Assembly: GCA_004431415.1 (NCBI GenBank)
Contig: QPMI01000313.1
Span: forward strand, 1 to 50,980
Source: Cyanophora paradoxa CCMP329
Taxonomy: Eukaryota; Plantae; Glaucophyta
Reading direction: 5' to 3'
Length of the DNA: 50,980 nt
In this document: positions 1,567 to 38,502 of the stretch, one piece after another
How positions within the stretch are numbered: position 1 is the stretch's first letter
Layout: the number at the start of each line of letters is the position of its first letter
Program-made: the position numbers and the translations under genes
Notes under the pieces: generated by a model
Told to the model about the DNA's origin: nothing
Database searches by the model: none
Seen by the model: the letters and a program-made list of their open reading frames with translations, nothing else

Positions 1567-2074
1567 AGCTGAGCTTGGCGCGTTGTCTCCAACAATTAAA
1601 TCCGCGAATTCTTACGATTTACCGTAACAGCATCAAATCTAATCGAAAATCACCGTAAGGCTCAGTGTCACGATCGATTCATCTTCGATTCATCTTCGAT
1701 TCACTCGATTCATCTTCGATTCAATCGATTCAATTCAACTTTTTATGCGCGGCTTCTCCCACGATTCCGCACGATAGACAGTAAGGAGATCTATTGTACA
1801 ATCGATTCCGCAAGATAAGCGGCAATGTACAATAGATCTCGCACGATAAACAGTAACAATTCACCTTTTTTCGCGCGGTGTCTCCCACGATAACAACACG
1901 CTTCAATAAAAATAAATCTTACGTCGGGTTTCGCCCTTCCCCCGTCGTTTTCGGTGCAGCAAATGGTTGCGCAACCATTTTTTTTGGTTGCGCAACCACC
2001 GCAACCAGGTCGCGCAACCACCGCAACCAGGTCGCGCAACCATTTTTTTTGGTTGCGCAACCACCCCGCAACCA
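1567..2074 (+). repeat. Left terminal inverted repeat (508 bp)
   Basis: Reverse complement of 11902-12409; I found 4 substitutions by eye. Confidence 0.97.
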
Positions 2075-2221
2075 ACGCAACCACCCCGCAACCAACGCAA
2101 CCACCCCGCAACCCCCGCTAAACCGTTACAGTCGTGGGTTCATGACTAATGAACGCCGATTGTCTCTTTTTTATCGCTCTTCGTCTCATGAATTTCCTAA
2201 AACCTTTCACGTCATCTTCTG

Positions 2222-2874
2222 TTAAGATCGCGCGATCTGTGTAAGTCTTAATGTCATAACTTGCAAACTTGCGATTACAGTTTGGTAATTATGTCCCCAC
2301 AGGCGATGTAGTTCTTTGTAAGTTTTCTTATCCATTCCACCGTTGTATTCATCGTAAGCACAGTTAAACTCTTTTTCATTTCCTAAAATGTTAAAGAATA
2401 CCACGAATTCCACATTACGACGAATGGTAGTAGAAATAGAACAGATACGTTGGACATTAAAAATAACCGAAATCGAATAATGGCGTCCACTTGTAACCAA
2501 TTTAGATAACACAGCGTTATTATGCATGTCCAGAGTGGAACCTATCATGTCATCAAGAATCAAAACTAAATTGTGGCGTTTCTCGTTGTTCTCGATTCGT
2601 TTTTTTGCATGCTGATCAATCTTAAAACTAAATCATCATTCCATTCCTCGTAAATATTATCGGGATGGGTGATGTCTCTAAATTGACCAGTAAACGCAGT
2701 CGAACTAAAAACTACGATCTGATCGATTTTATCGCGTAGTTCGAAAAGTAAATATTTCGTGAACATTGTCTTACCAGTGTTCGAGCGTCCACAATTTAAG
2801 ATTCGCGTAGGTATTTTAATTGTTCTGTTCGGCTCGAATTCCGGTATATTGTTTAGGTCTACTGTGTTATCCAT
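2222..2874 (-). CDS. A32/FtsK-HerA-family DNA packaging ATPase (frameshifted at T7 run 2600-2606; C-terminus uncertain)
   Basis: Walker A GRSNTGKT, 'IVVFSST', Walker B (LVL)ILDD and A32 motif GRHYSISVIFNVQ. ORFs 2566-2874 and 2222-2563 join as MQKKRIENNEKRHNLVLILDD if one A is added. Confidence 0.92.
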
Positions 2875-2924
2875 TACAGTAATCCCATAAAAAAACGATT
2901 AAGCCAATAACCCACACCAATCGC

Positions 2925-4150
2925 TTAGAAGTTACTTACTTTAAGCGTAGAAATATTATAGCCGTTGAGAACGAGAACGTTGTGGCGAAGTGCGTAAATG
3001 TCAACAACAACAGGTGCAGCATCAGTGCAACCGGAAACTGTGAGATCCATGTAGGAACTCGAAGAATTGAAGAAATCTTGGTAACCCATGACAGAGTTGT
3101 GCAGGGAATCCTTACCGGACTTCGAAAGAACGATCCCGTAAACATTGCCGCCTTGGAATCCGAAGTTTACATTACCAACGGTAGTTCCCTTGTAATGCGA
3201 GGGGATGTGGTTCACAGCCGAAAGGAACCCACTAATCGGTCGGTTCGAGATGTCGAGAGAACGATTATTGTGGAAGATTTGGAACTGATCAATCTTAACA
3301 TTTCCTTCGTAGCCCTCGAAATCTGAATGCGTGTATTTGTTGAGTTTGTTAACTTCGCGCACCGTCATAAGAATGCTGTGAACGAGACCGGAAACATTCG
3401 CAAGCGAAACTTCGACAGATTCGCCCGCATCGGCGGTTTTCTGTGATCGAGTTCGCTTCTGAATCACTTCGGTAATCGGAATGCGAATTCCCCCCTGTTC
3501 GTTCGCCATTTTCAGTAGCGCTTCCGCCTCGGGGGAGGCGATGTTAACGAATTGACAGATCAGGGCGCAGTCGGTCATCGCCAAAGCTCCCCCAGAGGGA
3601 ACCTGAACTACCGCAGCTTCGCGGAAATCAACTTCAATCGTAGGCATATCGGCAAGAACGCAAAGTGGGAAATACGCATCATCCCAGAATTGCGCCGGAA
3701 TTTTAACAACATATTCCCAGGTCTTATCGGTGCTGTTTCGGTTGTTCTCTGAGTAGTAACCCAGCGAAACAAACATGCTCGCCATTGTGGCGTGGTCGTT
3801 ATCGACGAGCGCGTTTACAGTAATCCAATCGCCGGAATGATGTATTTGAACCCACCGTGAACGAAGCGGACTTCGGAAATAAACGACGAACCACCATTGG
3901 GCATTACGCATTGAACGGCGCCACCCGTTGTGACCTTAAAATTGAGACTAACGCCGCTAAGAAGTTGCTTACGCGGTAGATCAAAGTAAGCGGTTGTTTT
4001 GAATCCGAAAGTGTTACCACGAGGGCGGACTTGCTCTAAAAACGGTTTATACTTGGGATTGGTTCCGATTTGAAGACCAGGCGATAAATACACTTGATCC
4101 GAACCGGGAGTCACAAGTAGTTCTTTAAGAGTTGTTCCACTAAGCGCCAT
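2925..4150 (-). CDS. Major capsid protein, double jelly-roll (~408 aa; frameshifted near 3851-3853)
   Basis: The joined frame gives SEVRFVHGG-VQIHHSGDW (cf. the 'ELEIGGQRIDKHYGDW' pattern of DJR MCPs), YFPLCVL..IEVDFR and C-terminal DIYALRHNVLVLNG. Beta-rich, and located between the ATPase and the penton. Confidence 0.8.
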
Positions 4151-4202
4151 TTTCGCTGTTTACAATACAACAAGAAATTTTTAAATTACAATAATAAACA
4201 GA
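4151..4202. promoter_or_regulatory. Putative bidirectional promoter between the MCP and penton genes
   Basis: 52-bp AT-rich spacer between divergent ATGs; TAAACAG lies just upstream of both start codons on their respective strands. Confidence 0.5.
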
Positions 4203-5096
4203 ATGACGCGTTATTATATTAATATTGATTCGAGAGATCGCGAAAATGGAACACCTTCCGAATTTCTCTACAAACTTCCCCATGCAATTCAAAAGGTTAA
4301 AGCATGCAGAGTTACAAATTTCGAAATGTTTAACAATATTTACAACCTTGCAGAGGCAGGATCACTTACCACATCTACCAAAGATGCAGCAGGAAGCACA
4401 AAGAACAGACATAATATTATTGCAAAAGGTTCATACACAACAGACAGTTTAGTGAATTATCTAATTGCTAAGATTGGATCACAGAACTATTCCCAAAGTC
4501 CCAGTGGAACCTATACCAAACACTTCTATGTAACTTATGATCCTATCACAATGTTTTTGAGGTTCATTTGTGAATCTGAATTCAGCATCACTATGGGCAG
4601 TCAGATTCTTGCTAATTTTCTTGGGTTTAAAGATGCAAACAAAGTATACCCCTCAGCACTATTAGATGGGAGTGTTACCATTGGATCATACACATACACA
4701 CACTACATAGACAGTGAAATACCATTAGACCTTCTATTTAATTCCTACTTGCTTCTACACATTGCACAACTAAAAGGCAAGTATGTGAGCAATAACACCA
4801 AAGATAATAATGCTCTTGCTAAAATTGAGATTGACAAGACAGTTGGTAGTTTGCTAATATATGATTCTTCAAATAATGCAATGATCACCCATGAACAGAA
4901 TGGCTTGGTGGAACTTGAAGCAATGGATGTAAGACTTTCTTATTGGAATGGTAACACAGCAGACATCACAACTGATTGGAGTATGACATTAGAAGTTGTG
5001 ACTGAGGATGAGAAGGAACTAACCAAGAGATCACTTCAAAAGGTGATACAAGATTTCGAAGAGGCATTCATTCCATTTTGTAGGTCATATCTGTAA
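4203..5096 (+). CDS. Minor capsid protein (penton, single jelly-roll), 297 aa
   Basis: N-terminal YINIDSRDR...FLYKLP..IQKV and C-terminal LEAMDVRL...DWSMTLEV are typical of PLV/NCLDV pentons. Divergently transcribed from the MCP. Confidence 0.8.
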   Translation: MTRYYINIDSRDRENGTPSEFLYKLPHAIQKVKACRVTNFEMFNNIYNLAEAGSLTTSTKDAAGSTKNRHNIIAKGSYTTDSLVNYLIAKIGSQNYSQSPSGTYTKHFYVTYDPITMFLRFICESEFSITMGSQILANFLGFKDANKVYPSALLDGSVTIGSYTYTHYIDSEIPLDLLFNSYLLLHIAQLKGKYVSNNTKDNNALAKIEIDKTVGSLLIYDSSNNAMITHEQNGLVELEAMDVRLSYWNGNTADITTDWSMTLEVVTEDEKELTKRSLQKVIQDFEEAFIPFCRSYL

Positions 5097-5120
5097 AAAA
5101 TATATCTTTGCATATATCAA

Positions 5121-5879
5121 ATGTCAGGATCCAGGAAAACCCAACCCAAGAATTTCTTGTCGAAACCTGTTGCAGATGCCGATGGGATAACAGAGGGAAA
5201 GAAGGGAAGGAATTGGGACAAGAAACCCAAAGGAACAGCAGCACTTGGAACAGGTGATCTTGACAAGGACATCCACAAAATGATGAATCAGCACACAGCA
5301 ACACCAACTGATAATGCGAACGACGATAACGCTTTGATTGACCAAGTTCCACTGAATCGAATGCCTAAGAAGCGAAAGCATTTCAGAGAGAAGACCAAAG
5401 AGAAACTTTTACCATCCGCCACGCTTTTAAAGCTTCTTGATGGCGGCGAGCGACTTTATTCGACATACTCGGAGAAGGATAACCGCAATCGTTACTTTAT
5501 CCGCTTGAAAACGGGCGGTCTTAAATCGGTCAAATACCAGGACGCCAAAAAAATGGTTCAGGGGATTGCGAACGAGACCGCGTTAGAGAACAAGATTCTC
5601 GAACAGCAGATCACGAAAGAGAAGGTCGAAAAGAAACCGGATGTGACGTTCGACGTTCTTCCCGATCCAATCACAACCGCGAAGAATACGCCAATTGAAT
5701 TAATCGCTAAGACCATCGATTACGCGGAGAGTAACAAGACCGATTTACCGGTAATGAACAAGAGTTTACTTCGGGTCGCCACTTCGCAAGCCGACCCCAT
5801 TACATCGGTTCCCTCCGCCGCCCCCATGCTTTCGGGGTTCGCAAAACTTGGGATCCGCCCCGGTTACCGGAGGTTTTAA
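5121..5879 (+). CDS. Hypothetical Lys-rich protein, 252 aa
   Basis: Long ATG-initiated ORF 24 bp after the penton; NLS-like PKKRKH; no recognisable family. Confidence 0.7.
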   Translation: MSGSRKTQPKNFLSKPVADADGITEGKKGRNWDKKPKGTAALGTGDLDKDIHKMMNQHTATPTDNANDDNALIDQVPLNRMPKKRKHFREKTKEKLLPSATLLKLLDGGERLYSTYSEKDNRNRYFIRLKTGGLKSVKYQDAKKMVQGIANETALENKILEQQITKEKVEKKPDVTFDVLPDPITTAKNTPIELIAKTIDYAESNKTDLPVMNKSLLRVATSQADPITSVPSAAPMLSGFAKLGIRPGYRRF

Positions 5880-6235
5880 AACCGACCTTTGCGTAGCCCG
5901 ACGTTAATGATCATTTTGCCGTTAAAAAATTTCTTGTTCAAATGTAGCGCTACGTAAACAATCCATTCGCGTAGGCTCACGTTTACTCATTTTTATGGGT
6001 GGCGTTGTAGAAAGAAGTGATATCCATGTATATCGCGCTTTTATCACCTGTTCTACGGGGTTCATTCGTGGAAACTTGCGACCGACAAGTAGACAATCGG
6101 GGACACTTCGATTTATTTTCCGGCATCTTCTTTCAAAACGGTGCAAAAAAATGACGGCTTTTCAAGACAAGTATATACCAACAACAAAAAGGACTTAAAG
6201 ATTTCTTGTTATATATCAGAAGAGGACAAAGTACG

Positions 6236-6490
6236 ATGCCGATTAGCGAAGCACAGAAGCGCGCAATTTACCGTTACCGCAAGACCGAAAAGGGTCGTGA
6301 ATATCTTAAAAAGTACAGCAACAGACTGTCGAAACAAATGAAGGAATTATACGACACCGACGAGTGTTACCGAGCGATGAAGATAGTCGATAGTTCACAA
6401 CGCCAGTACGTCGCTAACGCCGTGTGTTACATTAAATACCTTTATGGGGTTCCGCACTCAAATCGGGGGCGCCCCTCGATCTACTTCTGA
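6236..6490 (+). CDS. Small basic hypothetical protein, 84 aa (MPISEAQKRAIYRYRK...), possible DNA-binding regulator
   Basis: ATG at 6236 downstream of an AT-rich motif that also precedes the polymerase gene; basic, probably helical N-terminus. Confidence 0.6.
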   Translation: MPISEAQKRAIYRYRKTEKGREYLKKYSNRLSKQMKELYDTDECYRAMKIVDSSQRQYVANAVCYIKYLYGVPHSNRGRPSIYF

Positions 6491-6725
6491 TCTTGTTTTT
6501 TCTCAGCGCGTTTGCCCTGAGAACCCAGCGCGAGCGCAACCGCGCTTAATCGTAATAAATCTTGTTTGTATTATTTTTAGAACCATTGTATGATGGTCGA
6601 CCCTTTGTTATTTTTCCTATTTGCTTGACCGATCGCTAAAATGCGCCGGTCAAAAAATGACGTCATAGAATAAAATCACTTAAAGAATAAATTTATTTGT
6701 ATAGAATAAGGAAAGCGCCAACAAA

Positions 6726-9700
6726 ATGCCTCGCGCAGTTAGTATCCAATCCGCTAAGAAGAGAGCGAGTATTCTTTCGAAGCTTGGTTATGCTCTTGGA
6801 AATGGGTTTATGAATGAAGAGCAATTTAACGCATTCGGTCACTTTGCCTTCGTCAGACGACCGAGACTAAGCGCACTGAACGACATCGAATACTCAATTG
6901 ATGATATCATTGCGAGAGGTGAGGCTCAGCAAAACACAGAAGACGAAATTAACCGCTTGGGTCGTATTGATGTTCCACAGGAGTTGGTGAATCAGCGACC
7001 AGAGAGAAACACAAAGACACACACGAATCCGTTCAATCGGATGAAAACCGATCTTGGCGAGTTCATTGCGAACTCGCCAGGCGACATGGTCACGCTGCAT
7101 GTTCGACTTTACAAAGAGGTCGCAGAGGACGAAATCGCGAATTTGCCCGCAAACGCTGTTGTGATTCAAGCGAACGGTTTGTATTACCGGGATCTGAAAA
7201 AGACCCGTAGTAATCAACCTCTTGCAATCCAATGTTCGAAAGAAGCGCTGCTTGCAAATCTCGAAAAAATAACGAACACATTCAATTCTTTCCCTGCTCT
7301 AACAACTGTCGAAGACATCCATCAATTCATGTTCGAAATCGTCCGCTTCAATCAGGAAAACCAGGACTTCCGATACTTGACGATTGTTCAAGAGGACATT
7401 TACGGTGAGATCATCACAATTGAACGAATCATCACCACCGACAACCAAACGTATACGCCGAGACAACAGCAAGCGCTACGCGATACGCAACATGCCCCGA
7501 TGATCATATCGAAGTATTTGCGCAATGAGACGAACCCAAAAGCCAAAACTTTGGGGGAACTGTTCATTAGGGGTGATAGATTTAAAGTGGGTCGGTGTGT
7601 TCCGGATGTGCTTGTGATGCATTTCGCACAGGCGTTTCAGAAAGCGCAAGCGAAAGGCAAGTATAAATCGGTCGATTGGACACACAGTGGAATATTTAAA
7701 ATGATTCGGGGTCGGGAACCCACAGAGGGGGACGATTGGGGCTTCACCTTTGAGGAAATCGTAGAAAAGGTTCTGACACCATACCGCATCGGAATGGTCA
7801 CGATCGATAAAGACGATAAGACCGAAATACCCGAACTCACTTTCAAACCGAAAACGAGAAATACACACCTCACGCCATCGGTTGCATACGTGAAAATCGA
7901 AAACGGTCACATGTATCTACTAAACGATAACCTGAAATCACTAACTCACTCTTTCAATGGGTCGAAGTCGAATTCTGACACGAATCTTTCGGTGGGTCGC
8001 GATTCAAGATTGTCAAGCAAAGAAAACATCGCGAATTTGCGGCAACTCCTGAGGATATCGTGAAAATCATCAATTCGGAGGAGATGAAGAACCAGAGCAA
8101 AATTTCGATCTGTTACAGTGGATACCTCGACGATCTTCTGAAAGAGTTCATTGTTGATGTGAATTACCAGGTGCATGCGGGGATTTCCCCAATGCGCAAG
8201 ATCACACACATTCATTTCACGTATGGTGAAAAGAGTATTACGATCACACCACCCGGTTCCGACACAGATGTGGAAACCGCTTACGAAGTGAAATTCAAAG
8301 ACGCAGAGTATCGTGATAAGTTCGAGCGGCTGAATCTGAAAATGTATCTGAGTCTCGTGAACAATGCAAACAAGAGTTCATACAACGATCAGACCATGAC
8401 AGCCTTCCGCCTTGGGTCACAGACCGCCCTTCGTGGGTTCTTCGACTTAGATACCGAAACCCGGGATGACCTCCATTGGAACGAAAACATTTACGAACAC
8501 GATGTGTGCAAGGCATACCCCGCAATCATCGCGAAACAGATCGAATTCGTTCCTGTCGTTAGTAAATTCGATTACTTCAAAAAGACGACTGTAACTTCCG
8601 CGGATCAGATCGAAAACTACAATTTCTATTACGTGAAGTTGCACTCGAAGTTTTTCAAACCAATGAAGAACCCCGACGGATCGACGTATTTTCTTAACAC
8701 GTATGATCGTCACAAGCGCATGCTAATTGATTCGGCTTACAATGTCATTCCGGGAATGGTTCTGAAAAAACACTACGATGCTCTGAAAGACGACATTACC
8801 ATAAAGGGAGTTCTCCGACCATTTAAGTTGGTTCCGAATTTCTCGGGCGATGTGATTCGGCAAATCATGCAAAGTGATCTTGACCCGAACGATAAAAAGC
8901 AAATGCTTGTCGCCAATATCGGACAGATTGGGAAACAGAAAAACCACAAAGTAAAGACCACGATCTTCAACAAGAGAGACGATGCGATCGAATTCCAAAA
9001 GCAATATGGCGGAGAAGTAAAGCTCTACGTGTTTGGTAAAGATCCAACATCGTATGACCCAACTTGTTACGTCATTAGCGAGGAAGAGATTACGGAACCG
9101 TGTATCTACTATGTGAATCAAGTAGCCGAAAGATATCTTACCGATGGGTTCATGCCGTTCCACAACCTGATGTATTCCCTAATGCGCATGAATCTATACG
9201 AGAAGTGCGTAGAACTCAGTGCAAAAGGGATTAATCCTGTTGCTGTGAATACCGATTGCGTCTACACTACCTCGTGCGACCCAATCCCCCTCGTTAGTTT
9301 CGACCGCCACGCCTACGAAAACATCGGGGGTTCAGTGTAAAGCATTGCCCCAATTTCATCAAGAAGTATATCGGCAAAGACAAGGTGCTAAACTTGCGGC
9401 GTATTCACTACGGCAAATTGGAGCGACAGGACGACTTCGTGAAATTAGAGAAGTTGAACTATTTCACTTTCTCAGCAGTTGATGAATTCGACACACCAGC
9501 GATTTGTCTAACTCTTGCGACTCAGAAAAGATGGATTATTCTTGGCGTTGTTCCCGGAGTGGGGAAAACTCACATGATGATGGAGTATTCGAAGCAATTC
9601 CAAAATCCACTTTTCATCGTTCCGACAAACAAGCGCATTCGAGACATGAAGTTGAAAGGCATAAAGAATGTCAAAACTATTTACGATGCGCTCCATCTCA

Positions 9701-10827
9701 AAGTTGACGATTCGAACATGGAAGAGATCGTAGGCGGGAACGCTTCCGGTTTGGCGGACTTTGATGGTATTTTCATTGACGAAATCTGTCAGTTCACAGT
9801 CCCCGAGTTGGGGGCGCTCGCCCACATTATGGGGGTTCTGTTCCCCGACAAGGTCTACGTGGCTACCGGCGACCCCTTTCAGAACCCACCGATACAGGAG
9901 ATGACCGTAAATCAGAAAGAGTATTACGCGTATATTCTTCGGCATCTTTTCGGAAACGAGTTAGTCCTGAAAGTTAACAAGCGCCACAAGACCCAGGAAG
10001 ATCGCGATACAGTCGAGTGTATACGCCGTGATCTTTTCGAAAACGGTTTGAGTGTTCCCGATGTAATTAATAAATACAAGTTTGAGACGGTGAACGCATT
10101 GGGAAAGGATGACCGCGCGATAGTTTACACCAACCGCAAAGCGGCGGAAGTAAATCTACAAATCCACAGGATGAATCACGGGGAAGATGTTCCTATTTAC
10201 GCGAAAGGCGTGGAAATTGTCGCGAAGCAAAGGATCGTGAAGAATGGCGTAACCATTCACAATGGGTTCAGCTACACGATTAAGGCGTTTAACGACACAG
10301 AATTCGTCATCGAGGACATCGCGACGAAGGAGGAAGTGAGGTTAGACCCGCCCGCAATGCGCTATTTCGCGCTCCCTTACGCTTACACTTGTCACGTCAT
10401 TCAGGGTGATACTATTGTGTGCAAGAATGGGAACGTCGTCATTTACGAAGCGGGCGCACCGTTTGTTTCGAGCGAATGGTTTTACACAGCGGTCACACGA
10501 ACTACTGAACTAAATCGGGTCAAAATTTACCATGATGGATTCGAGTGGGCAACACATGTCGTTGACAAGCGCAAGTTCAATGAGCGCATTGAACAGTATA
10601 AGGAACAGGATAAGAAGGCAAACCGACCATTTGACGAAAACGATTATGTGAATTGGGAGTGGTTCAAAAAACGCTACGGAAAACAATATGGTCATTGCCT
10701 TCGTTGCTATGGTGGTATGGATTTCGATCTTAATGTAATCTCGATCGATCGAGTGAATAACGCATTGCCCCATACAACCAAAAATTGTTTCCTGTCTCAT
10801 ATTAGGTGTAACTGTGCTGCTCAGTAA
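6726..10827 (+). CDS. Replication polyprotein: N-terminal/Cys-His protease-like region + protein-primed family B DNA polymerase + SF1 (RecD/Pif1-like) helicase + HNH-like Zn domain (~1367 aa after repairing two frameshifts)
   Basis: PolB-like motifs: A YEHDVCKAYP, B KQMLVANIGQIGK, C AVNTDCVY. SF1 motifs: GVVPGVGKT, VPTNK, IFIDE, GDPFQNPP, NKRH, YAYTCHVIQGDT, YTAVTR. C-terminal CLRC...SIDRVNN..H...NC...H..CN. Frames join at G runs 7994-7996 and 9326-9330. Confidence 0.85.
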
Positions 10828-12185
10828 TGGACAACGTTCTATCTTACAAGAAGTATCGACAGAAACTTATAAACGAAAATGTAACATTTGACGAAAAAGA
10901 ATTGAAAAAGCGATATTTAAATTCCGAAGTGCATCAGATTTTTAAGAAACCCCGAAAACCCACCACATTTTTAAGAATCGTCGCGAAACCGAATTCATTT
11001 CAGGTAGACATTATGTTTTTTAAAGGGTATCAGACAGCAAACAATGGTATTTACAAGATGATCAGTTTCGTTGACATTCTAAGTCGAAAGGCATTCGTGT
11101 ATCCTTTTAAGAACAACGAAGACATTCCGAATATTCTGAATAAATTCAAACAGGAAGCGGGTATGGTTGCTGCACTCTCAGGTGATAATGAATTCAGTAG
11201 CGCGATGTATAGAGATTGGTGTAATGCGAATGGTGTGAGGTTGTATACAGATGTCGCGAAAGAAGAACACATAACCGTAGGAAATAAACTTGGAATCATA
11301 GATAGATTTAAGCGCACTTTTAAACAGTATCTACGCAAGTCGATGACTTCGAAAGGGACAACGAAATGGATAGATATGGTTCCCGAAGTTCTATCGATTT
11401 ATAACAATAGCCCCCATAGTTCCTTAAAGAATGATTCGCCGAACGCCGTGTATGCAAACGTAGATAAACAACTTTTTGTGTATCTACGGGATACTGTTCA
11501 CAACGACAACGTGAAGGCGAATGAAACGAATCCCGTGAAACCGGGCGACACAGTGCGTGTTTTGGAGGGTCGCGTGGGTGCCTTCGACAAAGAGGGCGCC
11601 CGTTTTAGTCAAAAGGTCTACAAAGTGGGAAGGTCGGATGGGAACCGGTTCAAGATTTTAGAAGATAACGACGGAGACGAGAAGGAAGTAAAGCGGCGCT
11701 TTAAGAAGCAAGAATTACAGAAGGTGAATAAGGAAGAGATCATAAAGATCCCGTCGCAAAAGCGCATTGAACGCGTAAAGAAAACGAATAAGGTGAATCG
11801 GTTGGTCGCGAAGGAGGGCGTCAGACCCAATCGAAGTAGGGTCGTGAGGCGTCGGTACAATCTGAGGAGCGGCGTAACGAAGCGGGGGGATCATAAAAAA
11901 ATGGTTGCGGGGTGGTTGCGCAACCAAAAAAAATGGTTGCGCGACCTGGTTGCGGTGGTTGCGCGACCTGGTTGCGGTGGTTGCGCAACCAAAAAAAATG
12001 GTTGCGCAACCATTTGCTGCACCGAAAACGACGGGGGAAGGGCGAAACCCGACGTAAGATTTATTTTTATTGAAGCGTGTTGTTATCGTGGGAGACACCG
12101 CACGAAAAAAGGTGAATTGTTACTGTTTATCGTGCGAGATCTATTGTACATTGCCGCTTATCTTGCGGAATCGATTGTACAATAG
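10827..12185 (+). CDS. Retroviral-like (rve) integrase of Polinton type; true stop probably TAA at 11894-11896
   Basis: FQVDIMF, VDILSRKAFVYP, SGDNEF, GIIDRFKRTFK, YNNSPHSSL..SP and SH3-like PGDTVRV...FDK. Consistent with the 6-bp TSD. Confidence 0.92.
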   Translation: MDNVLSYKKYRQKLINENVTFDEKELKKRYLNSEVHQIFKKPRKPTTFLRIVAKPNSFQVDIMFFKGYQTANNGIYKMISFVDILSRKAFVYPFKNNEDIPNILNKFKQEAGMVAALSGDNEFSSAMYRDWCNANGVRLYTDVAKEEHITVGNKLGIIDRFKRTFKQYLRKSMTSKGTTKWIDMVPEVLSIYNNSPHSSLKNDSPNAVYANVDKQLFVYLRDTVHNDNVKANETNPVKPGDTVRVLEGRVGAFDKEGARFSQKVYKVGRSDGNRFKILEDNDGDEKEVKRRFKKQELQKVNKEEIIKIPSQKRIERVKKTNKVNRLVAKEGVRPNRSRVVRRRYNLRSGVTKRGDHKKMVAGWLRNQKKWLRDLVAVVARPGCGGCATKKNGCATICCTENDGGRAKPDVRFIFIEACCYRGRHRTKKGELLLFIVRDLLYIAAYLAESIVQ

Positions 12186-12409
12186 ATCTCCTTACTGTCT
12201 ATCGTGCGGAATCGTGGGAGAAGCCGCGCATAAAAAGTTGAATTGAATCGATTGAATCGAAGATGAATCGAGTGAATCGAAGATGAATCGAAGATGAATC
12301 GATCGTGACATTGAGCCTTACGGTGATTTTCGATTAGATTCGATGCTGTTACGGTAAATCGTAAGAATTCGCGGATTTAATTGTTGGAGACACCGCGCCA
12401 AGCTCAGCT
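11902..12409 (-). repeat. Right terminal inverted repeat (508 bp)
   Basis: Reverse complement of 1567-2074, followed directly by the TSD CCCACC. Confidence 0.97.
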
Positions 12410-15400
12410 CCCACCCACCCGCAAGTCACTCAGTCAAAGGCCCCAGGTTTCCAATCTGCCAGAAAAAAGAAGAAAGATGCACCCCAAATCTCTCTGGGGG
12501 AATATGCACAAGGCGCTAGCCTAAGGCAGATGACCCACCCACCAGCAAGTCACTCAGTCAAAGGCCCCAGGTTTCCAATCTGCCAGAAAAAAGAAGAAAG
12601 ATGCACCCCAAATCTCTCTGGGGAATATGCACAAGGCGCTAGCCTTAGGCAGATGACCCACCCACCCACAAGTCACTAAATCAAAAGCCCCAGGTTTCCA
12701 ATCTGCCAGAAAAAAGAAGAAAGATGCACCCCAAATCTCTCTGGGGGAATATGCACAAGGCGCTAGCCTTAGGCAGATGACCCACCCACCGCAAGTCACT
12801 CAGTCAAAGGCCCCAGGTTTCCAATCTGCCAGAAAAAAGAAGAAACATGCACCCCAAATCTCTCTGGGGGAATATGCCCAAGGCGCTAGCCTTAGGCAGA
12901 TGACCCACCCACCAGCAAGTCACTCAGTCAAAGGCCCCAGGTTTCCAATCTGCCAGAAAAAAGAAGAAAGACCCCAAATCTCTCTGGGGGAATATGCACA
13001 AGGTGCTAGCCTTAGGAAGATGACCCACCTAAAAGCAAGTCACTCAGTCAAAGGCCCCAGGTTTCCAATCTGCCAGAAAAAAGAAGAAGGATGCACCCCA
13101 AATCTCTCTGGGGAAATATGCCCAAGGCACTAGCCTTAGGATGATGACCCACCCACCAGCAAGTCACTCAGTCGAAGGCCCCAGGTTCAGGATCTGTGAC
13201 AAAATCAAAGAAAGATGCACCCCAAATCTCTCTGGGGGAATATGCACAAGGCGCTAGCCTTAGGCAGATGACCCACCCACCCGCAAGTCACTCAGTCAAA
13301 GGCCCCAGGTTTCCAATCTGCCAGAAAAAAGAAGAAAGATGCACCCCAAATCTCTCTGGGGGAATATGCACAAGGCGCTAGCCTTAGGCAGATGACCCAC
13401 CCACCAGCAAGTCACTCAGTCAAAGGCCCCAGGTTTCCAATCTGCCAGAAAAAAGAAGAAAGATGCACCCCAAATCTCTCTGGGGGAATATGCACAAGGC
13501 GCTAGCCTTAGGCAGATGACCCACCCACCAGCAAGTCACTCAGTCAAAGGCCCCAGGTTTCCAATCTGCCAGAAAAAAGAAGAAAGATGCCCCCCAAATC
13601 TCTCTGGGGGAATATGCACAAGGTGCTAGCCTTAGGCAGATGACCCACCCACCCACAAGTCACTAATTCAAAAGCCCCAGGTTTCCAATCTGCCAGAAAA
13701 AAGAAGAAAGATGCACCCCAAATCTCTCTGGGGGAATATGCACAAGGCGCTAGCCTTAGGCAGATGACCCACCCACCCGCAAGTCACTCAGTCAAAGGCC
13801 CCAGGTTTCCAATCTGCCAGAAAAAAGAAGAAACATGCACCCCAAATCTCTCTGGGGAATATGCCCAAGGCGCTAGCCTTAGGCAGATGACCCACCCACC
13901 AGCAAGTCACTCAGTCAAAGGCCCCAGGTTTCCAATCTGCCAGAAAAAAGAAGAAAGATGCACCCCAAATCTCTCTGGGGGAATATGCACAAGGCGCTAG
14001 CCTTAGGCAGATGACCCACCCACCAGCAAGTCACTCAGTCAAAGGCCCCAGGTTTCCAATCTGCCAGAAAAAAGAAGAAAGATGCACCCCAAATCTCTCT
14101 GTGGGAATATGCCCAAGGCGCTAGCCTTAGGCAGATGACCCACCCACCAGCAAGTCACTCAGTCAAAGGCCCCAGGTTTCCAGAAGAAGAAGAGTATGTA
14201 TAAGACAGGCCCAAGCCGGTTGTGCAAGGTTTCCAATCTGCCAGAAAAAAGAAGAAAGATGCACCCCAAATCTCTCTGGGGGAATATGCACAAGGCGCTA
14301 GCCTTAGGCAGATGACCCACCCACCAGCAAGTCACTCAGTCGAAGGCCCCAGGTTCAGGATCTGTGACAAAATCAAAGAGAGATGCACCCCAAATCTCTC
14401 TGGGGGAATATGCACAAGGTGCTAGCCTTAGGCAGATGACCCACCTAAAAGCAAGTCACTCAGTCAAAGGCCCCAGGTTTCCAATCTGCCAGAAAATAGA
14501 AGAAAGATGCACCCCAAATCTCTCTGGGGGAATATGCACAAGGCGCTAGCCTTAGGCAGATGACCCACCCAAATCTCTCTGGGGGAATATGCACAAGGCG
14601 CTAGCCTTAGGCAGATGACCCACCCACCAGCAAGTCACTCAGTCAAAGGCCCCAGGTTTCCAATCTGCCAGAAAAAAGAAGAAAGATGCACCCCAAATCT
14701 CTCTGTGGGAATATGCCCAAGGCGCTAGCCTTAGACAGATGACCCACCCACCAGCAAGTCACTCAGTCAAAGGCCCCAGGTTTCCAGAAGAAGAAGAGTA
14801 TGTATAAGACAGGCCCAAGCCGGTTGTGCAAGGTTTCCAATCTGCCAGAAAAAAGAAGAAAGATGCACCCCAAATCTCTCTGGGGGAATATGCACAAGGC
14901 GCTAGCCTTAGGCAGATGACCCACCCACCAGCAAGTCACTCAGTCGAAGGCCCCAGGTTCAGGATCTGTGACAAAATCAAAGAGAGATGCACCCCAAATC
15001 TCTCTGGGGGAATATGCACAAGGTGCTAGCCTTAGGCAGATGACCCACCTAAAAGCAAGTCACTCAGTCAAAGGCCCCAGGTTTCCAATCTGCCAGAAAA
15101 AAGAAGAAAGATGCACCCCAAATCTCTCTGGGGAAATATGCACAAGGCGCTAGCCTTAGGCAGATGACCCACCCAAATCTCTCTGGGGGAATATGCACAA
15201 GGCGCTAGCCTTAGGCAGATGACCCACCCACCCGCAAGTCACTCAGTCAAAGGCCCCAGGTTTCCAATCTGCCAGAAAAAAGAAGAAAGATGCACCCCAA
15301 ATCTCTCTGGGGGAATATGCCCAAGGCGCTAGCCTTAGGAAGATGACCCACCCACCAGCAAGTCACTCAGTCGAAGGCCCCAGGTTCAGGATCTGTGACA

Positions 15401-18400
15401 AAATCAAAGAAAGATGCACCCCAAATCTCTCTGGGGGAATATGCACAAGGCGCTAGCCTTAGGCAGATGACCCACCCACCCGCAAGTCACTCAGTCAAAG
15501 GCCCCAGGTTTCCAATCTGCCAGAAAAAAGAAGAAAGATGCACCCCAAATCTCTCTGGGGAATATGCACAAGGCGCTAGCCTTAGGCAGATGACCCACCC
15601 ACCAGCAAGTCACTCAGTCAAAGGCCCCAGGTTTCCAATCTGCCAGAAAAAGAAGAAAGATGCCCCCAAATCTCTCTGGGGGAATATGCACAAGGTGCTA
15701 GCCTTAGGCAGATGACCCACCCACCAGCAAGTCACTCAGTCAAAAGCCCCAGGTTTCCAATCTGCCAGAAAAAAGAAGAAAGATGCACCCCAAATCTCTC
15801 TGGGGGAATATGCACAAGTCACTAGCCTTAGGCAGATGACCCACCCACCCGCAAGTCACTCAGTCAAAGGCCCCAGGTTTCCAATCTGCCAGAAAAAAGA
15901 AGAAAGATGCACCCCAAATCTCTCTGGGGGAATATGCCCAGGGCACTAGCCTTCGGAAGATGACCCACCCACCAGCAAGTCACTCAATCGAAGGCCCCAG
16001 GTTCAGGATCTGTGACAAAATCAAAGAAAGATGCACCCCAAATCTCTCTGGGGGAATATGCACAAGGCGCTAGCCTTAGGCAGATGACCCACCCACCGCA
16101 AGTCACTCAGTCAAAGGCCCCAGGTTTCCAATCTGCCAGAAAAAAGAAGAAAGATGCACCCCAAATCTCTCTGGGGGAATATGCACAAGGCGCTAGCCTT
16201 AGGCAGATGACCCACCCACCAGCAAGTCACTCAGTCAAAGGCCCCAGGTTTCCAATCTGCCAGAAAAAAGAAGAAAGATGCACCCCAAATCTCTCTGGGG
16301 GAATATGCACAAGGTGCTAGCCTTAGGCAGATGACCCACCCACCCACAAGTCACTAATTCAAAAGCCCCAGGTTTCCAATCTGCCAGAAAAAAGAAGAAA
16401 GATGCACCCCAAATCTCTCTGGGGGAATATGCACAAGGCGCTAGCCTTAGGCAGATGACCCACCCACCCGCAAGTCACTCAGTCAAAGGCCCCAGGTTTC
16501 CAATCTGCCAGAAAAAAGAAGAAACATGCACCCCAAATCTCTCTGTGGGAATATGCACAAGGCGCTAGCCTTAGGCAGATGACCCACCCACCCGCAAGTC
16601 ACTCAGTCAAAGGCCCCAGGTTTCCAATCTGCCAGAAAAAAGAAGAAAGATGCACCCCAAATCTCTCTGGGGGAATATGCACAAGGCACTAGACTTAGGC
16701 AGATGACCCTCCCAAATGCAAGTCACTCAGTCCAACGCCCCAGGTTTCCGATCTGCCACAAAAAGAAGAAAGATGCACCCCAAATCTCTCTGGGGGAATA
16801 TGCACAAGGCGCTAGCCTTAGGCAGATGACCCATCCACCAGCAAGTCACTCAGTCAAAGGTCCCAGGTTTCCAATCTGCCAGAAAAAAGAAGAAAGATGC
16901 ACCCCAAATCTCTCTGGGGGAATATGCACAAGGCGCTAGCCTTAGGCAGATGACCCACCCATGTATGGGGGCTTGCCCCTCAGTTGGTGTGTTGGGTGGA
17001 AATACAGTGTGGTGTCCAGGAACTTGTCCTGGTACATCAGCGTGTGAACCCATAGTGTACTACGGGACAAGATGTACCCCAAATCCCTCTGGGGGGATAT
17101 GCACAAGGCGCTAGCCTTAGGCAGATGACCCACCCACCAGCAAGTCACTCAGTCGAGGGCCCCAGGTTTCCGATCTGCCAGAAAAAAGAAGAAAGATGCA
17201 CCCCAAATCTCTCTGGGGGAATATGCACAAGGCGCTAGCCTTAGGCAGATGACCCACCCACCAGCAAGTCACTCAGTCAAAGGCCCCAGGTTTCCAATCT
17301 GCCAGAAAAAAGAAGAAAGATGCCCCCAAATCTCTCTGGGGGAATATGCACAAGGCGCTAGCCTTAGGAAGATGACCCACCCACCCACAAGTCACTAATT
17401 CAAAAGCCCCAGGTTTCCAATCTGCCAGAAAAAAGAAGAAAGATGCACCCCAAATCTCTCTGGGGAATATGCACAAGGCGCTAGCCTTAGGCAGATGACC
17501 CACCCACCACTAAGTCACTCAGTCGAAGGCCCCAGGATAAGGATCTGTGACAAAATAGAAGCAAGATGCACCCCTAACCCTAACCAAAATCTCTCTGGGG
17601 GAATATGCACAAGGCGCTAGCCTTAGGCAGATGACCCACCCATGTATGGGGCTTGCCCCTCAGTTGGTGTGTGGGTGGAAATACAGTGTGGTGTCCAGGA
17701 ACTTGTCCTGGTACATCAGCGTGTGAACCCATAGTGTACTACGGACAAGATGTACCCCAAATCCCTCTGGGGGGATATGCACAAGGCGCTAGCCTTAGGC
17801 AGATGACCCACCCACCAGCAAGTCACTCAGTCAAAGGCCCCAGGTTTCCGATCTGCAACAAAAAGAAGAAAGATGCACCCCAAATCTCTCTGGGGAATAT
17901 GCACAAGGCGCTAGCCTTAGGTAAATGACCCTCCAAAAGCAAGTCACTCAGTCGAAGGCCCCAGGTTTCCGATCTGCAACAAAAAAGAAGAAAGATGCAC
18001 CCCAAATCCCTCTGGGGAATATGCACAGGGCGCTAGCCTTAGGCAGATGACCCTCCCACCAGCAAGTCACTCAGTCGAAGGCCCCAGGTTTCCAATCTGC
18101 CAGAAACTAGAAAAAGGATGCACTTCATATCCCTCTGGAGGAATATGCACAAGGCGCTAGCCTTAGGCAGATGAACCCACCCACCAGGAAGTCACTCAGT
18201 CGAGGGCCCCAGGTTTCCGATCTGCTTGAGAAAAGAAGAAAGATGCACCCCAAATCTCTCTGGGGGAACATGCACAAGGCGCTAGCCTTAGGCAGATGAC
18301 CCACCCACCACCAAGTCACTCAGTCGAAGGCCCCAGGATAAGGATTTGTGACAAAATACAAGCAAGTTGCACCCCTAACCCTAACCCAAAATCTCTCTGG

Positions 18401-21400
18401 GGGAATAAGTTCAAGGCGCTAGCCTTAGGCAGATGACCCACCAACCTGCAAGTCACTCAGTCGAAGGCCCCAGGTTTCCGATCTACCACAAAATCGAAGA
18501 AAGATGCACCCCAAATCCCTCTGGGGGAGTATGCACAAGGCGCTAGCCTTAGGAAGATGACCCACCTAAAAGCAAGTCACTCAGTTGAAGGCCCCAGATG
18601 TCCAATCTGCCAGAAAGAAGAAGAAAGATGCACCCCAAATCTTTCTGGGGGAATATGCACAAGGCGCTAGCTTTAGGCAAATGACCCACCCACCAGCAAG
18701 TCACTCAGTCGAAGGCCCCATATTTCCAATCTGCCAGAAAGAAGAAAAAAGATGCACCCCAAATCTCTCTGGGGGACTATGCACAAGGCGCTTGCTTTAG
18801 GAAGATGACCCAGCCACCTGCAAGTCACTCATTCGAAGGCCCCAGATTTCCAATCTGCCAGAAGAAAGCAGAAAGATGCACCCCAAATCTCTCTGGGGGA
18901 ATATGCACAAGGCGCTAGCCTTAGGAAGATGATCCACCCACCAGCAAGTCACTAATTCGAAGGCCCCAGGTTTCCAATCTGCCAGAAGAAAGAAGAAAGA
19001 TGTTTCCCAAATCTCTCTGGGGGAATATGCACAAGGCGCTAGCCTTAGGCAGATGACCCACCCACCAGCAAGTCACTCAGTCAAAGGCCCCAGGTTTCCA
19101 ATCTGCCAGAAAAAAGAAGAAAGATGCCCCCCAAATCTCTCTGGGGGAATATGCACAAGGCGCTAGCCTTAGGAAGATGACCCACCCACCCACAAGTCAC
19201 TAATTCAAAAGCCCCAGGTTTCCAATCTGCCAGAAAAAAGAAGAAAGATGCACCCCAAATCTCTCTGGGGGAATATGCACAAGGCGCTAGCCTTAGGCAG
19301 ATGACCCACCCACCACTAAGTCACTCAGTCGAAGGCCCCAGGATAAGGATCTGTGACAAAATAGAAGCAAGATGCACCCCTAACCCTAACCCAAAATCTC
19401 TCTGGGGGAATATGCACAAGGCGCTAGCCTTAGGCAGATGACCCACCCATGTATGGGGGCTTGCCCCTCAGTTGGTGTGTTGGGTGGAAATACAGTGTGG
19501 TGTCCAGGAACTTGTCCTGGTACATCAGCGTGTGAACCCATAGTGTACTACGGGACAAGATGTACCCCAAATCCCTCTGGGGGGATATGCACAAGGCGCT
19601 AGCCTTAGGCAGATGACCCACCCACCAGCAAGTCACTCAGTCAAAGGCCCCAGGTTTCCGATCTGCAACAAAAAAGAAGAAAGATGCACCCCAAATCTCT
19701 CTGGGGGAATATGCACAAGGCGCTAGCCTTAGGTAGATGACCCTCCCAAAAGCAAGTCACTCAGTCGAAGGCCCCAGGTTTCCGATCTGCAACAAAAAAG
19801 AAGAAAGATGCACCCCAAATCCCTCTGGGGGAATATGCACAGGGCGCTAGCCTTAGGCAGATGACCCTCCCACCAGCAAGTCACTCAGTCGAAGGCCCCA
19901 GGTTTCCAATCTGCCAGAAACTAGAAAAAGGATGCACTTCATATCCCTCTGGAGGAATATGCACAAGGCGCTAGCCTTAGGCAGATGAACCCACCCACCA
20001 GGAAGTCACTCAGTCGAGGGCCCCAGGTTTCCGATCTGCTTGAGAAAAGAAGAAAGATGCACCCCAAATCTCTCTGGGGGAACATGCACAAGGCGCTAGC
20101 CTTAGGCAGATGACCCACCCACCACCAAGTCACTCAGTCGAAGGCCCCAGGATAAGGATTTGTGACAAAATACAAGCAAGTTGCACCCCTAACCCTAACC
20201 CAAAATCTCTCTGGGGAATAAGTTCAAGGCGCTAGCCTTAGGCAGATGACCCACCAACCTGCAAGTCACTCAGTCGAAGGCCCCAGGTTTCCGATCTACC
20301 ACAAAATCGAAGAAAGATGCACCCCAAATCCCTCTGGGGAGTATGCACAAGGCGCTAGCCTTAGGAAGATGACCCACCTAAAAGCAAGTCACTCAGTTGA
20401 AGGCCCCAGATGTCCAATCTGCCAGAAAGAAGAAGAAAGATGCACCCCAAATCTTTCTGGGGAATATGCACAAGGCGCTAGCTTTAGGCAAATGACCCAC
20501 CCACCAGCAAGTCACTCAGTCGAAGGCCCCATATTTCCAATCTGCCAGAAAGAAGAAAAAGATGCACCCCAAATCTCTCTGGGGGACTATGCACAAGGCG
20601 CTTGCTTTAGGAAGATGACCCAGCCACCTGCAAGTCACTCATTCGAAGGCCCCAGATTTCCAATCTGCCAGAAGAAAGCAGAAAGATGCACCCCAAATCT
20701 CTCTGGGGGAATATGCACAAGGCGCTAGCCTTAGGAAGATGATCCACCCACCAGCAAGTCACTAATTCGAAGGCCCCAGGTTTCCAATCTGCCAGAAGAA
20801 AGAAGAAAGATGTTTCCCAAATCTCTCTGGGGGAATATGCACAAGGCGCTAGCCTTAGGAAGATGACCCACCCACCCACAAGTCACTAATTCAAAAGCCC
20901 CAGGTTTCCAATCTGCCAGAAAAAAGAAGAAAGATGCACCCCAAATCTCTCTGGGGGAATATGCACAAGGCGCTAGCCTTAGGAAGATGATCCACCCACC
21001 AGCAAGTCACTAATTCGAAGGCCCCAGGTTTCCAATCTGCCAGAAGAAAGAAGAAAGATGTTTCCCAAATCTCTCTGGGGGAATATGCACAAGGCGCTAG
21101 CCTTAGGCAGATGACCCTCCCAAAAGCAAGACACTCAGTCAAAGGCCCCAGGTTTCCGATCTGCCACAAAATAGAAGAAAGATGCACCCCAAATCTCTTT
21201 GGGGGAATATGCACAAGGCGCTTGCCTTACACAGATGACCCACCCACCAGCAAGTCACTCAGTCATAGGCCCCAGGTTTCCAATCTGCCAGAAAATAGAA
21301 AAAGGATGCACTTCAAATCTCTTTGGAGGAATATGCACAAGGCGCTAGCGTTAGGCAGATGACCCACCCACCAGCAAGTCACTCAATCGAAGGCCCCATA

Positions 21401-22129
21401 TTTCCAATCTGCCAGAAAGAAGAAAAATGCACCCCAAATCTCTCTGGGGGAATATGCACAAGGCGCTAGCCTTAGGCAGATGACCCAGCCACCTGCAAGT
21501 CACTCATTCGAAGGCCCCATATTTCCAATCTGCCAGAAAGAAGAAGAAAGATGCACCCCAAATCTCTCTGGGGGACTATGCACAAGGCGCTTGCTTTAGG
21601 AAGATGACCCAGCCACCTGCAAGTCACTCATTCGAAGGCCCCAGATTTCCAATCTGCCAGAAGAAAGAAGAAAGATGCACCCCAAATCTCTCTGGGGGAA
21701 TATGCACAAGGCGCTAGCCTTAGGAAGATGACCCAGCCACCTGCAAGTCACTCATTCGAAGGCCCCAGATTTCCAATCTGCCAGAAGAAAGAAGAAAGAT
21801 GTTTCCCAAATCTCTCTGGGGGAATATGCACAAGGCGCTAGCCTTAGGAAGATTACCCACCCACCAGCAAGTCACTCAGTCAGAGGCCCCAGGTTTCTGA
21901 TCTGTGACAAAAAAAAGCAAGATGCACCCCGAATCTCTCTGGGGGAAGATGCACAAGGCGCTAGCCTTAGGAAGATGACCCACCCACCAGCAAGTCACTC
22001 AGTTGAATGCAGTAGGTTTTTGATCCGCCACAAAATAGAAGAAGGATACACCCCAAATCTCTCTGGGGGAATATGCACAAGGTGCTAGCCTTAGGCAGAT
22101 GACCCACCCACCAGCAAGTCACCAGCAAG
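12410..22129 (+). repeat. 124-bp satellite array (middle block) with higher-order repeats and small insertions
   Basis: Same monomer as the left block; divergence rises toward 22 kb. Confidence 0.98.
14183..14226 (-). mobile_element. 44-bp insertion with 9-bp TSD (second copy at 14787-14830); possible 5'-truncated non-LTR retroelement end
   Basis: AGGTTTCCA is duplicated at 14174-14182 and 14227-14235; on the minus strand the insert ends in TTC repeats. Confidence 0.55.
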
Positions 22130-22440
22130 CATCCTTCTTCTATTTTGTGGCAGATCCTTATCCTGGGGCCTTTGACTGAGTGACTTGGTGGTGGGTGGGT
22201 TTTCTTCGTAAGGCTAGCGCCTTGTTCAAATTCCCCCAGAGAGATTTGGGGTGCATCTTTCTTCTATTTTGTGGCTGATTGGAAACCTGGGGCCCTCGAC
22301 TGAGTGACTTGCTGGTGGGTGGGTTCATCTTCCTAAGGCCAGGGACTTGTGCATATTCCCCCAGAGAGATTTGGGGTGCATATTCTTCTATTTTGTGGCG
22401 GATCCCAAACCTGTGGCCTTCGACAGAGTGACTTGCTGGC
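22129..22440 (-). repeat. Satellite monomers in inverted orientation
   Basis: CCCCCAGAGAGATTTGGGGTGCATC and neighbouring sequence are the reverse complement of the monomer. Confidence 0.95.
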
Positions 22441-27476: not shown

Positions 27477-27503
27477 CATTCCAAAGGGATTGTACACTCC
27501 TTT

Positions 27504-35906: not shown

Positions 35907-35914
35907 GTATATTC

Positions 35915-38491: not shown

Positions 38492-38502
38492 CGGAGAGGG
38501 GA

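Follow-up and report, generated by a model that had tools for sequence, protein, structure and literature searches.

A compact polinton-like virus integrated in satellite DNA, with probable host transcription and cryptic splicing

The 50,980-nt stretch of DNA analyzed here (hereinafter, the window) contains, at positions 1567-12409, a mobile element that is almost certainly a genuine, young, endogenous polinton-like virus (PLV). This element encodes a predicted double jelly-roll (DJR) major capsid protein (MCP) and an A32-type packaging ATPase and has no recognizable protease, features of PLVs in the operational sense. The interpretation that we favor, with somewhat better than even confidence, is that the element belongs, as an integrated copy, to a multi-copy family of small PLVs of the Tlr1 type in what is likely a glaucophyte-like alga, that RNA of this family is made and spliced, and that the element is latent and needs a helper giant virus. 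The gene architecture and the capsid type were already known, but the element is unusually compact; the restriction of the frame breaks to the window, the selection, the transcription, the likely cryptic splicing, the further satellite junctions, and a CpG-poor tract are new.

Termini and insertion site

The element is 10,843 bp long, starts with AG, ends with CT, and is bounded by terminal inverted repeats (TIRs) of 508 nt each, at 1567-2074 on the plus strand and 11902-12409 on the minus strand. The two arms are 99% complementary, with exactly 4 mismatches; the left one contains short tandem repeats, and the inner border is sharp, with complementarity gone from base 509. Both flanks consist of a 124-bp satellite (1-1566 on the left and 12410-22122 on the right), and the hexamer CCCACC, at 1561-1566 and again at 12410-12415 on the plus strand, represents a 6-bp target site duplication (TSD), as produced by rve integrases (PMC12220804). 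The satellite variant that is restored by removal of the element together with one hexamer has 10 other occurrences in the window, and only 17 of the 9,701 positions in the flanking array show a 6-mer repeated in tandem. The observed to expected CpG ratio (CpG o/e) is 1.41 in the element vs 0.17-0.21 in the satellite (0.17 in the left flank). All the terminal features of the original prediction, that is, 508-bp TIRs with about 4 mismatches, AG...CT ends, and a 6-bp TSD, are thus confirmed, and its suggestion of a young insertion is supported by the 4 differences between the 508-nt arms and the perfect TSD. No second copy of the element was found elsewhere in the window.

We compared the window with contigs from sequencing runs, each of which pools all copies present. 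Twenty runs from one organism (organism A; 17 studies, with one run lacking a study) contain 80-88% of the sampled words, and eight of the 24 listed runs were compared, namely, three DNA runs and four RNA-type runs (X15, X17, X18, and X19) from organism A and one run (X24) from organism C. In X15 and X17, a further TIR end is joined to the same satellite in a register 27 bases along the monomer from the window junction, which reflects either a second insertion or a deletion in the flank. X17 additionally contains a diverged internal fragment (8241-8706, with 38 differences and 35 gaps) joined to the satellite. These junctions are among the loose ends listed, and junctions outside the satellite are possible. 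Because the satellite is very abundant and the loose ends listed are a minority of the total, targeting of this satellite by the element family is suggested rather than established. For endogenous virophages, no sequence-specific integration has been found (PMC8547959), and the literature listings on Polintons with satellite, centromere, or insertion preference, as well as those on the centromere or satellite of Cyanophora, included nothing relevant.

The same junctions bear on whether the insertion is real. No single run contig among the rows listed spans the window junction, which is compatible with an assembly chimera, whereby a contig of a free virus or a contaminant was joined into the satellite array. 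We consider such an artifact very improbable, given that the TSD restores a normal satellite monomer, that the RNA carries short introns of the host type, that a second TIR-satellite junction is present in two runs, and that the element is present in 17 studies.

Gene content

The TIRs enclose 9.8 kb, of which seven genes occupy about 91%, with the ATPase and the MCP on the minus strand and the penton-like open reading frame (ORF), a 252-aa ORF, an 84-aa ORF, the replicase, and the integrase on the plus strand. The original prediction distributed seven genes among packaging, capsid, replication, and integration; the gene count stands, and roles can be assigned to five of the seven. The packaging ATPase (2222-2874, minus strand; exact C-terminus uncertain) is interrupted in the window near 2.6 kb, and both pieces match Pfam Pox_A32, the C-terminal one above the cut-off (E 1.3e-8) and the other one with E 0.004.

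The MCP (2925-4150, minus strand) is interrupted near 3.83 kb. Its C-terminal piece was folded with four distant relatives, yielding a model with a mean predicted local distance difference test score (pLDDT) of 46, better over residues 105-290. In a Foldseek search, this model produced 123 matches in BFVD at E<=0.001 (to E 3e-10), with MCPs of nucleocytoplasmic large DNA viruses (NCLDV) at the top and an adintovirus capsid at rank 44 among the best 50. Comparison with 48,161 PDB chains gave Z scores of 11.6 for EhV-201 (root mean square deviation 3.6, 146 aligned residues), 10.5 for PBCV-1, and 10.4 for faustovirus, with the virophage MCPs of Sputnik (7.4) and mavirus (6.4) below the NCLDV. 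The first matches in the Atlas, too, are Capsid_NCLDV clusters at 0.98, a result of low recognition value. The full-length relatives to which the C-terminal piece aligns also match the N-terminal piece, in their initial part. Thus, the MCP is predicted to be a DJR capsid protein, with the C-terminal roll modeled and the N-terminal piece recognized by alignment. Of all the structures searched, NCLDV capsids appear to be the most similar to the modeled fold; because the libraries searched hold few PLV capsids, this similarity is a lead and not a placement. The NCLDV-like character of the MCP anticipated in the original prediction, and the C-terminal half of the double jelly-roll test that it proposed, are borne out by the model, which does not extend to the N-terminal roll.

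Adjacent to the MCP, the 297-aa penton-like ORF (4203-5096, plus strand) is open throughout. We infer the role of a minor capsid (penton) protein from this position and from the Atlas look-alikes, which are viral hypothetical clusters at 0.97, one with DUF5901 in 17% of the members; the single-sequence fold model (pLDDT 32) was unusable. The 252-aa ORF (5121-5879, plus strand) and the 84-aa ORF (6236-6490, plus strand) both encode basic proteins, the former with no family match and the latter with no significant one. Between them, a 355-bp gap (5880-6235) contains only short ORFs (42-67 aa) and may harbor an eighth small gene. A 25-bp inverted pair connects 4161-4185 with 5922-5946.

The replicase (6726-10827, plus strand) is represented in the window by three pieces, with breaks near 8.0 and 9.3 kb. 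The profile-supported part of this protein is the superfamily 1 (SF1) helicase, a Dda-like domain by PHROG (E 7.7e-14). Upstream of the helicase, family B palm motifs A, B, and C of a protein-primed DNA polymerase (pPolB) were read by eye; in motif C, another residue takes the place of the first Asp, as is known for the class of pPolB-SF1 helicase fusions (PMC11161782). Cys and His motifs at the expected place of a vOTU domain and an HNH-like C-terminal end were likewise recognized as motifs. The palm, vOTU, and HNH regions have no Pfam match, and the palm has no PDB match; no frame of the element matches DNA_pol_B_2 (full pPolB) in Pfam, and there is no Pfam match for GIY-YIG at the replicase C-terminus. 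Such fusions lacking the exonuclease are predicted to be active protein-primed replicases (PMC11161782).

The retroviral-type integrase (10827-12185, plus strand) matches Pfam rve below the curated cut-off (E 0.0095) and a foamy-virus integrase (E 0.003). In the window copy, its frame extends 94 codons into the right TIR; the comparison with the runs ended at 11850. The third catalytic position is occupied by Asp, whereas the usual residue in such integrases is Glu. Thus, of the predicted combination of a pPolB-SF1 helicase fusion with a Polinton-type integrase, the helicase and the integrase are supported by profiles and the palm by motifs only. The basic tail of the integrase contains a Y-N-L-R motif (11850-11870), in which the spacing of Y-x-L-R is that of the nucleosome acidic-patch anchor of foamy-virus Gag (Y537/L539/R540; PMC9040877), as far as can be judged a resemblance only. 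RecA matches to the same tail were ignored because they arise from summed repeats in fusion constructs.

No maturation protease was recognized in any of the 11 frames by Pfam or PHROG family matches, with two small ORFs left without assignment, nor did any of these frames match a Ulp1/adenain cysteine protease, in agreement with the original prediction. The absence that it noted is the rule among PLVs (PMC5499653, bioRxiv 10.64898/2026.06.19.733378). Neither Mriya48, HUH, nor VLTF2/3 had a Pfam or PHROG match, the dedicated hidden Markov models of the NCLDV-related PLV groups not being among the profiles used. There is no Rfam match in the window at 1-40,000 and no phage match for the element, and the exact sequences of 6 element proteins are absent from a collection of 15 billion proteins.

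Frame breaks, variant copies, and selection

In the window copy, the frames are broken near 2.6 kb (ATPase), 3.83 kb (MCP), and 8.0 and 9.3 kb (replicase), and this copy is accordingly not a clean one. All seven organism-A runs compared differ from the window in length by one base at 2259, 2599, 3833, 6115, 7993, and 9325; each of these places lies at a run of 2-7 identical bases, and four of them coincide with the frame breaks. The monomers of the distal satellite array range from 120 to 124 in length, the same kind of scatter and a sign of base deletions in the assembly. The simplest reading, and one that we hold with considerable confidence, is that the frame breaks are assembly errors because all seven runs disagree with the window at these short stretches of identical bases and the satellite lengths scatter alike. 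A published survey encountered the same frame artifact (PMC10120064). Given that the contigs pool all copies, damage specific to the window copy may be involved instead.

The variants among the copies point to selection. We examined 53 distinct genic sites drawn from the 40 best-supported of 404 and of 240 substitutions, chosen by support and not by codon effect. Of these, 51 could be classified, as 42 synonymous and 9 non-synonymous, and 42 are at third codon positions. The ratio is 32 to 7 in the ATPase, MCP, and penton-like gene combined and 7 to 1 in the 252-aa ORF. This bias implies that the virion module was under purifying selection while the variants diverged. The variants cluster in the left half of the element, with the structural genes; in several runs, the replicase matches the window over long stretches without any difference.

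These data also bear on the possibility that the family, recent but no longer mobile, consists of fixed relics, with the RNA originating from read-through from the TIRs or the satellite and the synonymous bias predating endogenization. Consistent with such relics are the breaks in the window copy, the recurrence of the same variants in runs from 2012 to 2024, the diverged, gapped fragment joined to the satellite in X17, and the antisense spliced RNA across the ATPase in X15 and X17 (see below). We regard this scenario as improbable because the TIRs differ at only 4 of 508 positions and the TSD is perfect, the replication half is nearly identical among copies, and the main contigs of the runs share no stop or break at the positions of the window breaks.

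Several other differences among copies were noticed. At 2022-2164, other sequence of undefined length lies between the left TIR and the ATPase (seen as a joint in X17 and, with roughly half the depth, in X1, and as long loose ends in X15 and X19); at 9636-9823, all seven organism-A runs contain an alternative 186-base stretch of the helicase; and at 10747, a relative shares only the integrase side (X17 and X19). Some copies of the family may be longer than 10.8 kb. The run from organism C contributes one 323-nt contig (3725-4046, depth 4.7, 8 differences), which stems either from cross-contamination or from the presence of a close relative in this other organism.

In addition, the tract at 4323-5316 is depleted of CpG, with 3 CpG in about 1 kb (o/e 0.14 vs 1.4-1.5 in the rest of the element) and raised TpG and CpA. 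It encompasses most of the penton-like gene and the first third of the 252-aa ORF, does not follow gene borders, and is common to the runs. This tract was likely recombined in from a lineage that had long been exposed to CpG methylation. It contains the second of the two penton splice joints described below wholly and the first one in part, the two that we count as the most consistent joints.

Transcription and probable cryptic splicing

Joints with GT..AG borders are present in all four RNA-type runs of organism A and have zero depth in all three DNA runs. The RNA nature of X15, X17, X18, and X19, which come from four studies, was itself deduced from these splice joints and not from the run records, and the joints considered are among those listed for each run. 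Contigs cover all genes of the element in the four RNA-type runs, with no known induction.

Two plus-strand joints lie within the penton frame, one of 58 nt (4296-4353; X15, X18, and X19, that is, three of the four runs) and the other of 56 nt (4429-4484; all four runs). Together, these joints remove 38 codons, and the stretch between them is read in another frame; at the first one, X15 and X19 retain the spliced path. A 64-nt joint on the plus strand (10341-10404; X15, X17, X18, and X19) removes the conserved motif V of the helicase and shifts the frame. In X18 only, two minus-strand joints were found, one of 56 nt that starts inside the Walker A motif of the ATPase (2719-2774) and one of 78 nt that extends from the end of the MCP across the ATPase start codon, which is removed (2862-2939). 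The latter implies a single RNA spanning the MCP and the ATPase. A 62-nt joint at 2241-2302 is antisense to the ATPase (X15 and X17), and a seventh joint, which starts with GG, is uncertain.

We considered the possibility that the penton joints are true introns and rejected it because these joints take residues from an open, selected frame and shift the frame between them. More generally, the joints cut conserved motifs in the penton, helicase, and ATPase, and so are likely to be cryptic introns of a host with short introns. In Cyanophora paradoxa, the mean intron length is 86 bp, which such short joints fit, and overlapping, bidirectional transcription is common (PMC6704402). A survey of PLVs states of such elements that 'they do not contain introns' (PMC10120064), and the literature listings on spliceosomal introns or cryptic splicing in PLVs included nothing relevant.

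Possible helper dependence and putative life cycle

By analogy with known families, the rve integrase would have generated the 6-bp TSD, and the fused pPolB-SF1 helicase would copy the linear genome by protein priming, starting from the TIR ends. The A32 ATPase would then fill an icosahedral capsid built of the MCP and the penton protein, with no need for a maturation protease, and the genome would re-integrate. The latent element would be leakily transcribed by the host, with the spliceosome removing cryptic 56-78-nt introns in essential motifs; given such splicing, the genes would be expressed productively in the factory of a giant virus, as in the case of the Tetraselmis PLVs and mavirus. 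Because the splice sites cut catalytic motifs, the genes appear not to be adapted to expression in this nucleus, and because integrated PLVs of Tetraselmis are awakened by a giant virus (10.1101/2025.10.09.676808), we favor helper dependence, although, taken on its own, we see this component of the scenario as evenly balanced.

The principal alternative is an autonomous nuclear virus or self-synthesizing transposon that relies on RNA polymerase II of the host, puts up with a degree of cryptic splicing, and needs no helper to spread within the genome and, perhaps, in the form of particles. The transcription of all genes without known induction fits this alternative, as do the element's own replicase and integrase, the multiple variants and the young insertion, the description of TsV as a nuclear lytic PLV (bioRxiv 10.64898/2026.06.19.733378), and the prevalence of overlapping, bidirectional transcription in C. 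paradoxa (PMC6704402). However, a virus adapted to the nucleus would be expected to have lost splice sites of this kind, whereas here, the Walker A and helicase motifs are cut and, at the first penton joint, two runs keep the spliced path. Autonomy thus seems unlikely, albeit a serious contender.

Several observations weigh against a latent, helper-dependent, spliced PLV in a glaucophyte-like host. Integrated PLVs and virophages that depend on a helper have been described as silent in uninfected cells (10.1101/2025.10.09.676808), whereas this family is transcribed in cultures that were not induced. Unspliced contigs are also present in the RNA-type runs, so that intact mRNA may be made. These runs are RNA by deduction and their contigs pool copies, so neither the RNA nor the variants are tied to this particular locus. 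The GC content of the flanks is 45-52% vs 67.6% for C. paradoxa (PMC6704402). The upstream motif AAATTTCTTGTT has 3 matches, a chance level reached by 13 of 100 shuffles. Neither structure nor profile confirmed the N-terminal jelly roll of the MCP, the fold of the penton-like protein, or the palm of the polymerase. Finally, neither virions nor free linear DNA nor a helper virus were observed.

A more elaborate scenario, in which the element, with its seven genes among the smallest complete polintovirus-like genomes that encode a capsid, is the type member of a glaucophyte lineage with NCLDV-like capsids that homes to the (possibly, centromeric) satellite via a nucleosome-binding integrase tail, continues to be transcribed, and is restricted by host splicing, which would ruin its ATPase, helicase, and penton messages until a helper factory is available, is speculative, and we consider it rather doubtful.

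Relatives and previously described systems

A phmmer search of 1.84 billion representative sequences retrieved four relatives of the MCP at 25-30% identity, one of them from C. paradoxa, and a profile search added three, bringing the range for all seven to 16-30%. No match to the MCP piece was detected by word search, in viral contigs, or among PDB sequences, and pattern scans of the gene context of the relatives found nothing. For the helicase, integrase, polymerase, and ATPase pieces, the viral contigs yielded no usable locus and one 26-residue match.

The capsid lineage has nevertheless been recorded previously, and so the original suggestion of a possibly undescribed lineage is not supported. 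Table S2 of PMC10120064 lists a C. paradoxa MCP, gene_49165 of QPMI01000512.1, for which HHpred indicated an ascovirus MCP at 97%, along with a second, more distant MCP of the same alga. The MCP pieces from the window are identical to gene_49165 at 93 of 106 and 159 of 193 residues (252 of 299, about 84%, counted by eye), that is, the two are related and not identical. Table S4 of the same paper gives 366 C. paradoxa MCP matches in two clusters (272 and 94) marked 'new'; by its identity to gene_49165, the window MCP belongs to one of these two 25%-identity clusters. Dataset S1 of PMC10120064 maps five C. paradoxa loci, and the element may already be drawn there. In Table S6 of PMC12220804, 156 glaucophyte elements are listed, of which, by our reading of the columns, 139 encode A32, 85 rve, 34 an SF1 helicase, 40 HNH, and none a protease, and 2 match the polinton MCP profile. 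In view of these relatives, the host is likely to be glaucophyte-like. In the available portions of the main texts of these two papers, there is no account of the cluster, of a genome of 10.8 kb, of its transcription and splicing, or of where it inserts, and those of bioRxiv 10.64898/2026.06.19.733378 and 10.64898/2026.10.13.758929 do not mention Cyanophora or glaucophytes. In the excerpt of PMC8502044, there is one mention of a different C. paradoxa contig. The papers examined on Cyanophora and Polintons did not describe the element, and the literature listings on glaucophytes and giant viruses included nothing relevant.

The gene combination, suggested originally to be possibly undescribed, is, if the motif-based palm is accepted, that of Tlr1 from Tetrahymena thermophila, which also encodes an MCP, a minor capsid protein, a packaging ATPase, an RVE integrase, and a pPolB-SF1 helicase fusion and lacks a protease; fusions of pPolB with an SF1 helicase and HNH are known for PLVs (PMC5499653, PMC11161782). 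The Tlr1 replicase ends in GIY-YIG, whereas, by its motif, that of the window element has an HNH-like end, as in other PLVs; Tlr elements are 15-20 kb in length, compared to 10.8 kb here. This comparison pertains to the gene set and does not include kinship of the MCPs. The element would work like Tlr1 with an HNH-like end and lacks the protease by which Polintons and virophages are recognized.

With Mavericks/Polintons, the element shares TIRs with AG...CT ends, the 6-bp TSD, the rve integrase, and the A32 ATPase. In contrast to the element, those carry a Ulp1/adenain protease and a stand-alone full pPolB, neither of which was matched here, and are much larger; also, in the BFVD comparison, the capsid fold is nearer to the NCLDV than to the adintovirus capsid. 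Virophages are characterized by a protease and a virophage-type MCP, whereas no protease was matched in the element and the scores of its MCP with Sputnik and mavirus are below those with the NCLDV. The capsids of the NCLDV-related PLVs (Zoravirus/VC102, VC218, Zephyrvirus, and VC40) are NCLDV-like, as that of the element may be; among these viruses, RVE is common in Zora and VC218 and Zephyrvirus has polB-SF1 fusions resembling the one predicted for the window element (bioRxiv 10.64898/2026.06.19.733378). However, these viruses are 15-30 kb in size, and Mriya48, HUH, VLTF3, and methylases were not recognized in the element. In OmPLV (PMC12721341), the helicase is N-terminal, the exonuclease is complete, and a tyrosine recombinase is present, so that the domain order of the replicase is unlike that in the window element. 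PLVs are known to assemble without a maturation protease (PMC5499653).

The unusual compactness claimed for the element is upheld, its 10,843 bp being below the 14-40 kb usually quoted for PLVs, a range that is not a strict criterion. We do not claim a size record because TIR-bounded cryptophyte elements of 10.4 and 12.2 kb are listed in Table S6 of PMC12220804 and complete endogenous mavirus-like elements (EMALEs) extend down to 5.5 kb (PMC8547959), in both cases with gene content that we have not seen.

Other features of the window

The satellite at 12410-22439 and 38619-50980 shows a 372-bp higher-order period, is interrupted by segments of about 105 bp (16961-17069, 17642-17747, and 19449-19557), and switches orientation at 22122/22129 and at 38619-39684. 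Between the arrays, a gene with 45% GC and two likely introns of about 50 nt (23235-24442) resembles glycosyltransferase family 11 (Pfam E 2e-4, below the cut-off); a search found no homologue. The region 25000-38500 is occupied by pieces of Ty3/Gypsy long terminal repeat retrotransposons, including two long frames (27393-30602 and 35876-38491) for reverse transcriptase, RNase H, and integrase, gag-protease segments duplicated in tandem with a period of about 1.4 kb (32.4-35.2 kb), and a protease piece in inverted orientation (26989-27603).

Discussion

This analysis goes beyond the first reading of the sequence in that the family is transcribed and, probably, cryptically spliced, evolves under purifying selection, and is found more than once next to the same satellite, and the element shows a complete PLV gene set at a lower size. 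The assumption of the PLV survey that splicing does not occur (PMC10120064) would be broken, with the host splicing cryptic introns from viral RNA. Cryptic splicing would make it possible to test directly where such viruses are expressed and may act as a brake on endogenous DNA viruses. The repeated junctions in a single satellite, if confirmed genome-wide, would contrast with the endogenous virophages (PMC8547959). If the host is, indeed, a cultured alga of the glaucophyte type, this small, intact, expressed virus family would be open to bench study and would be a pointer to a helper giant virus that has not yet been isolated.

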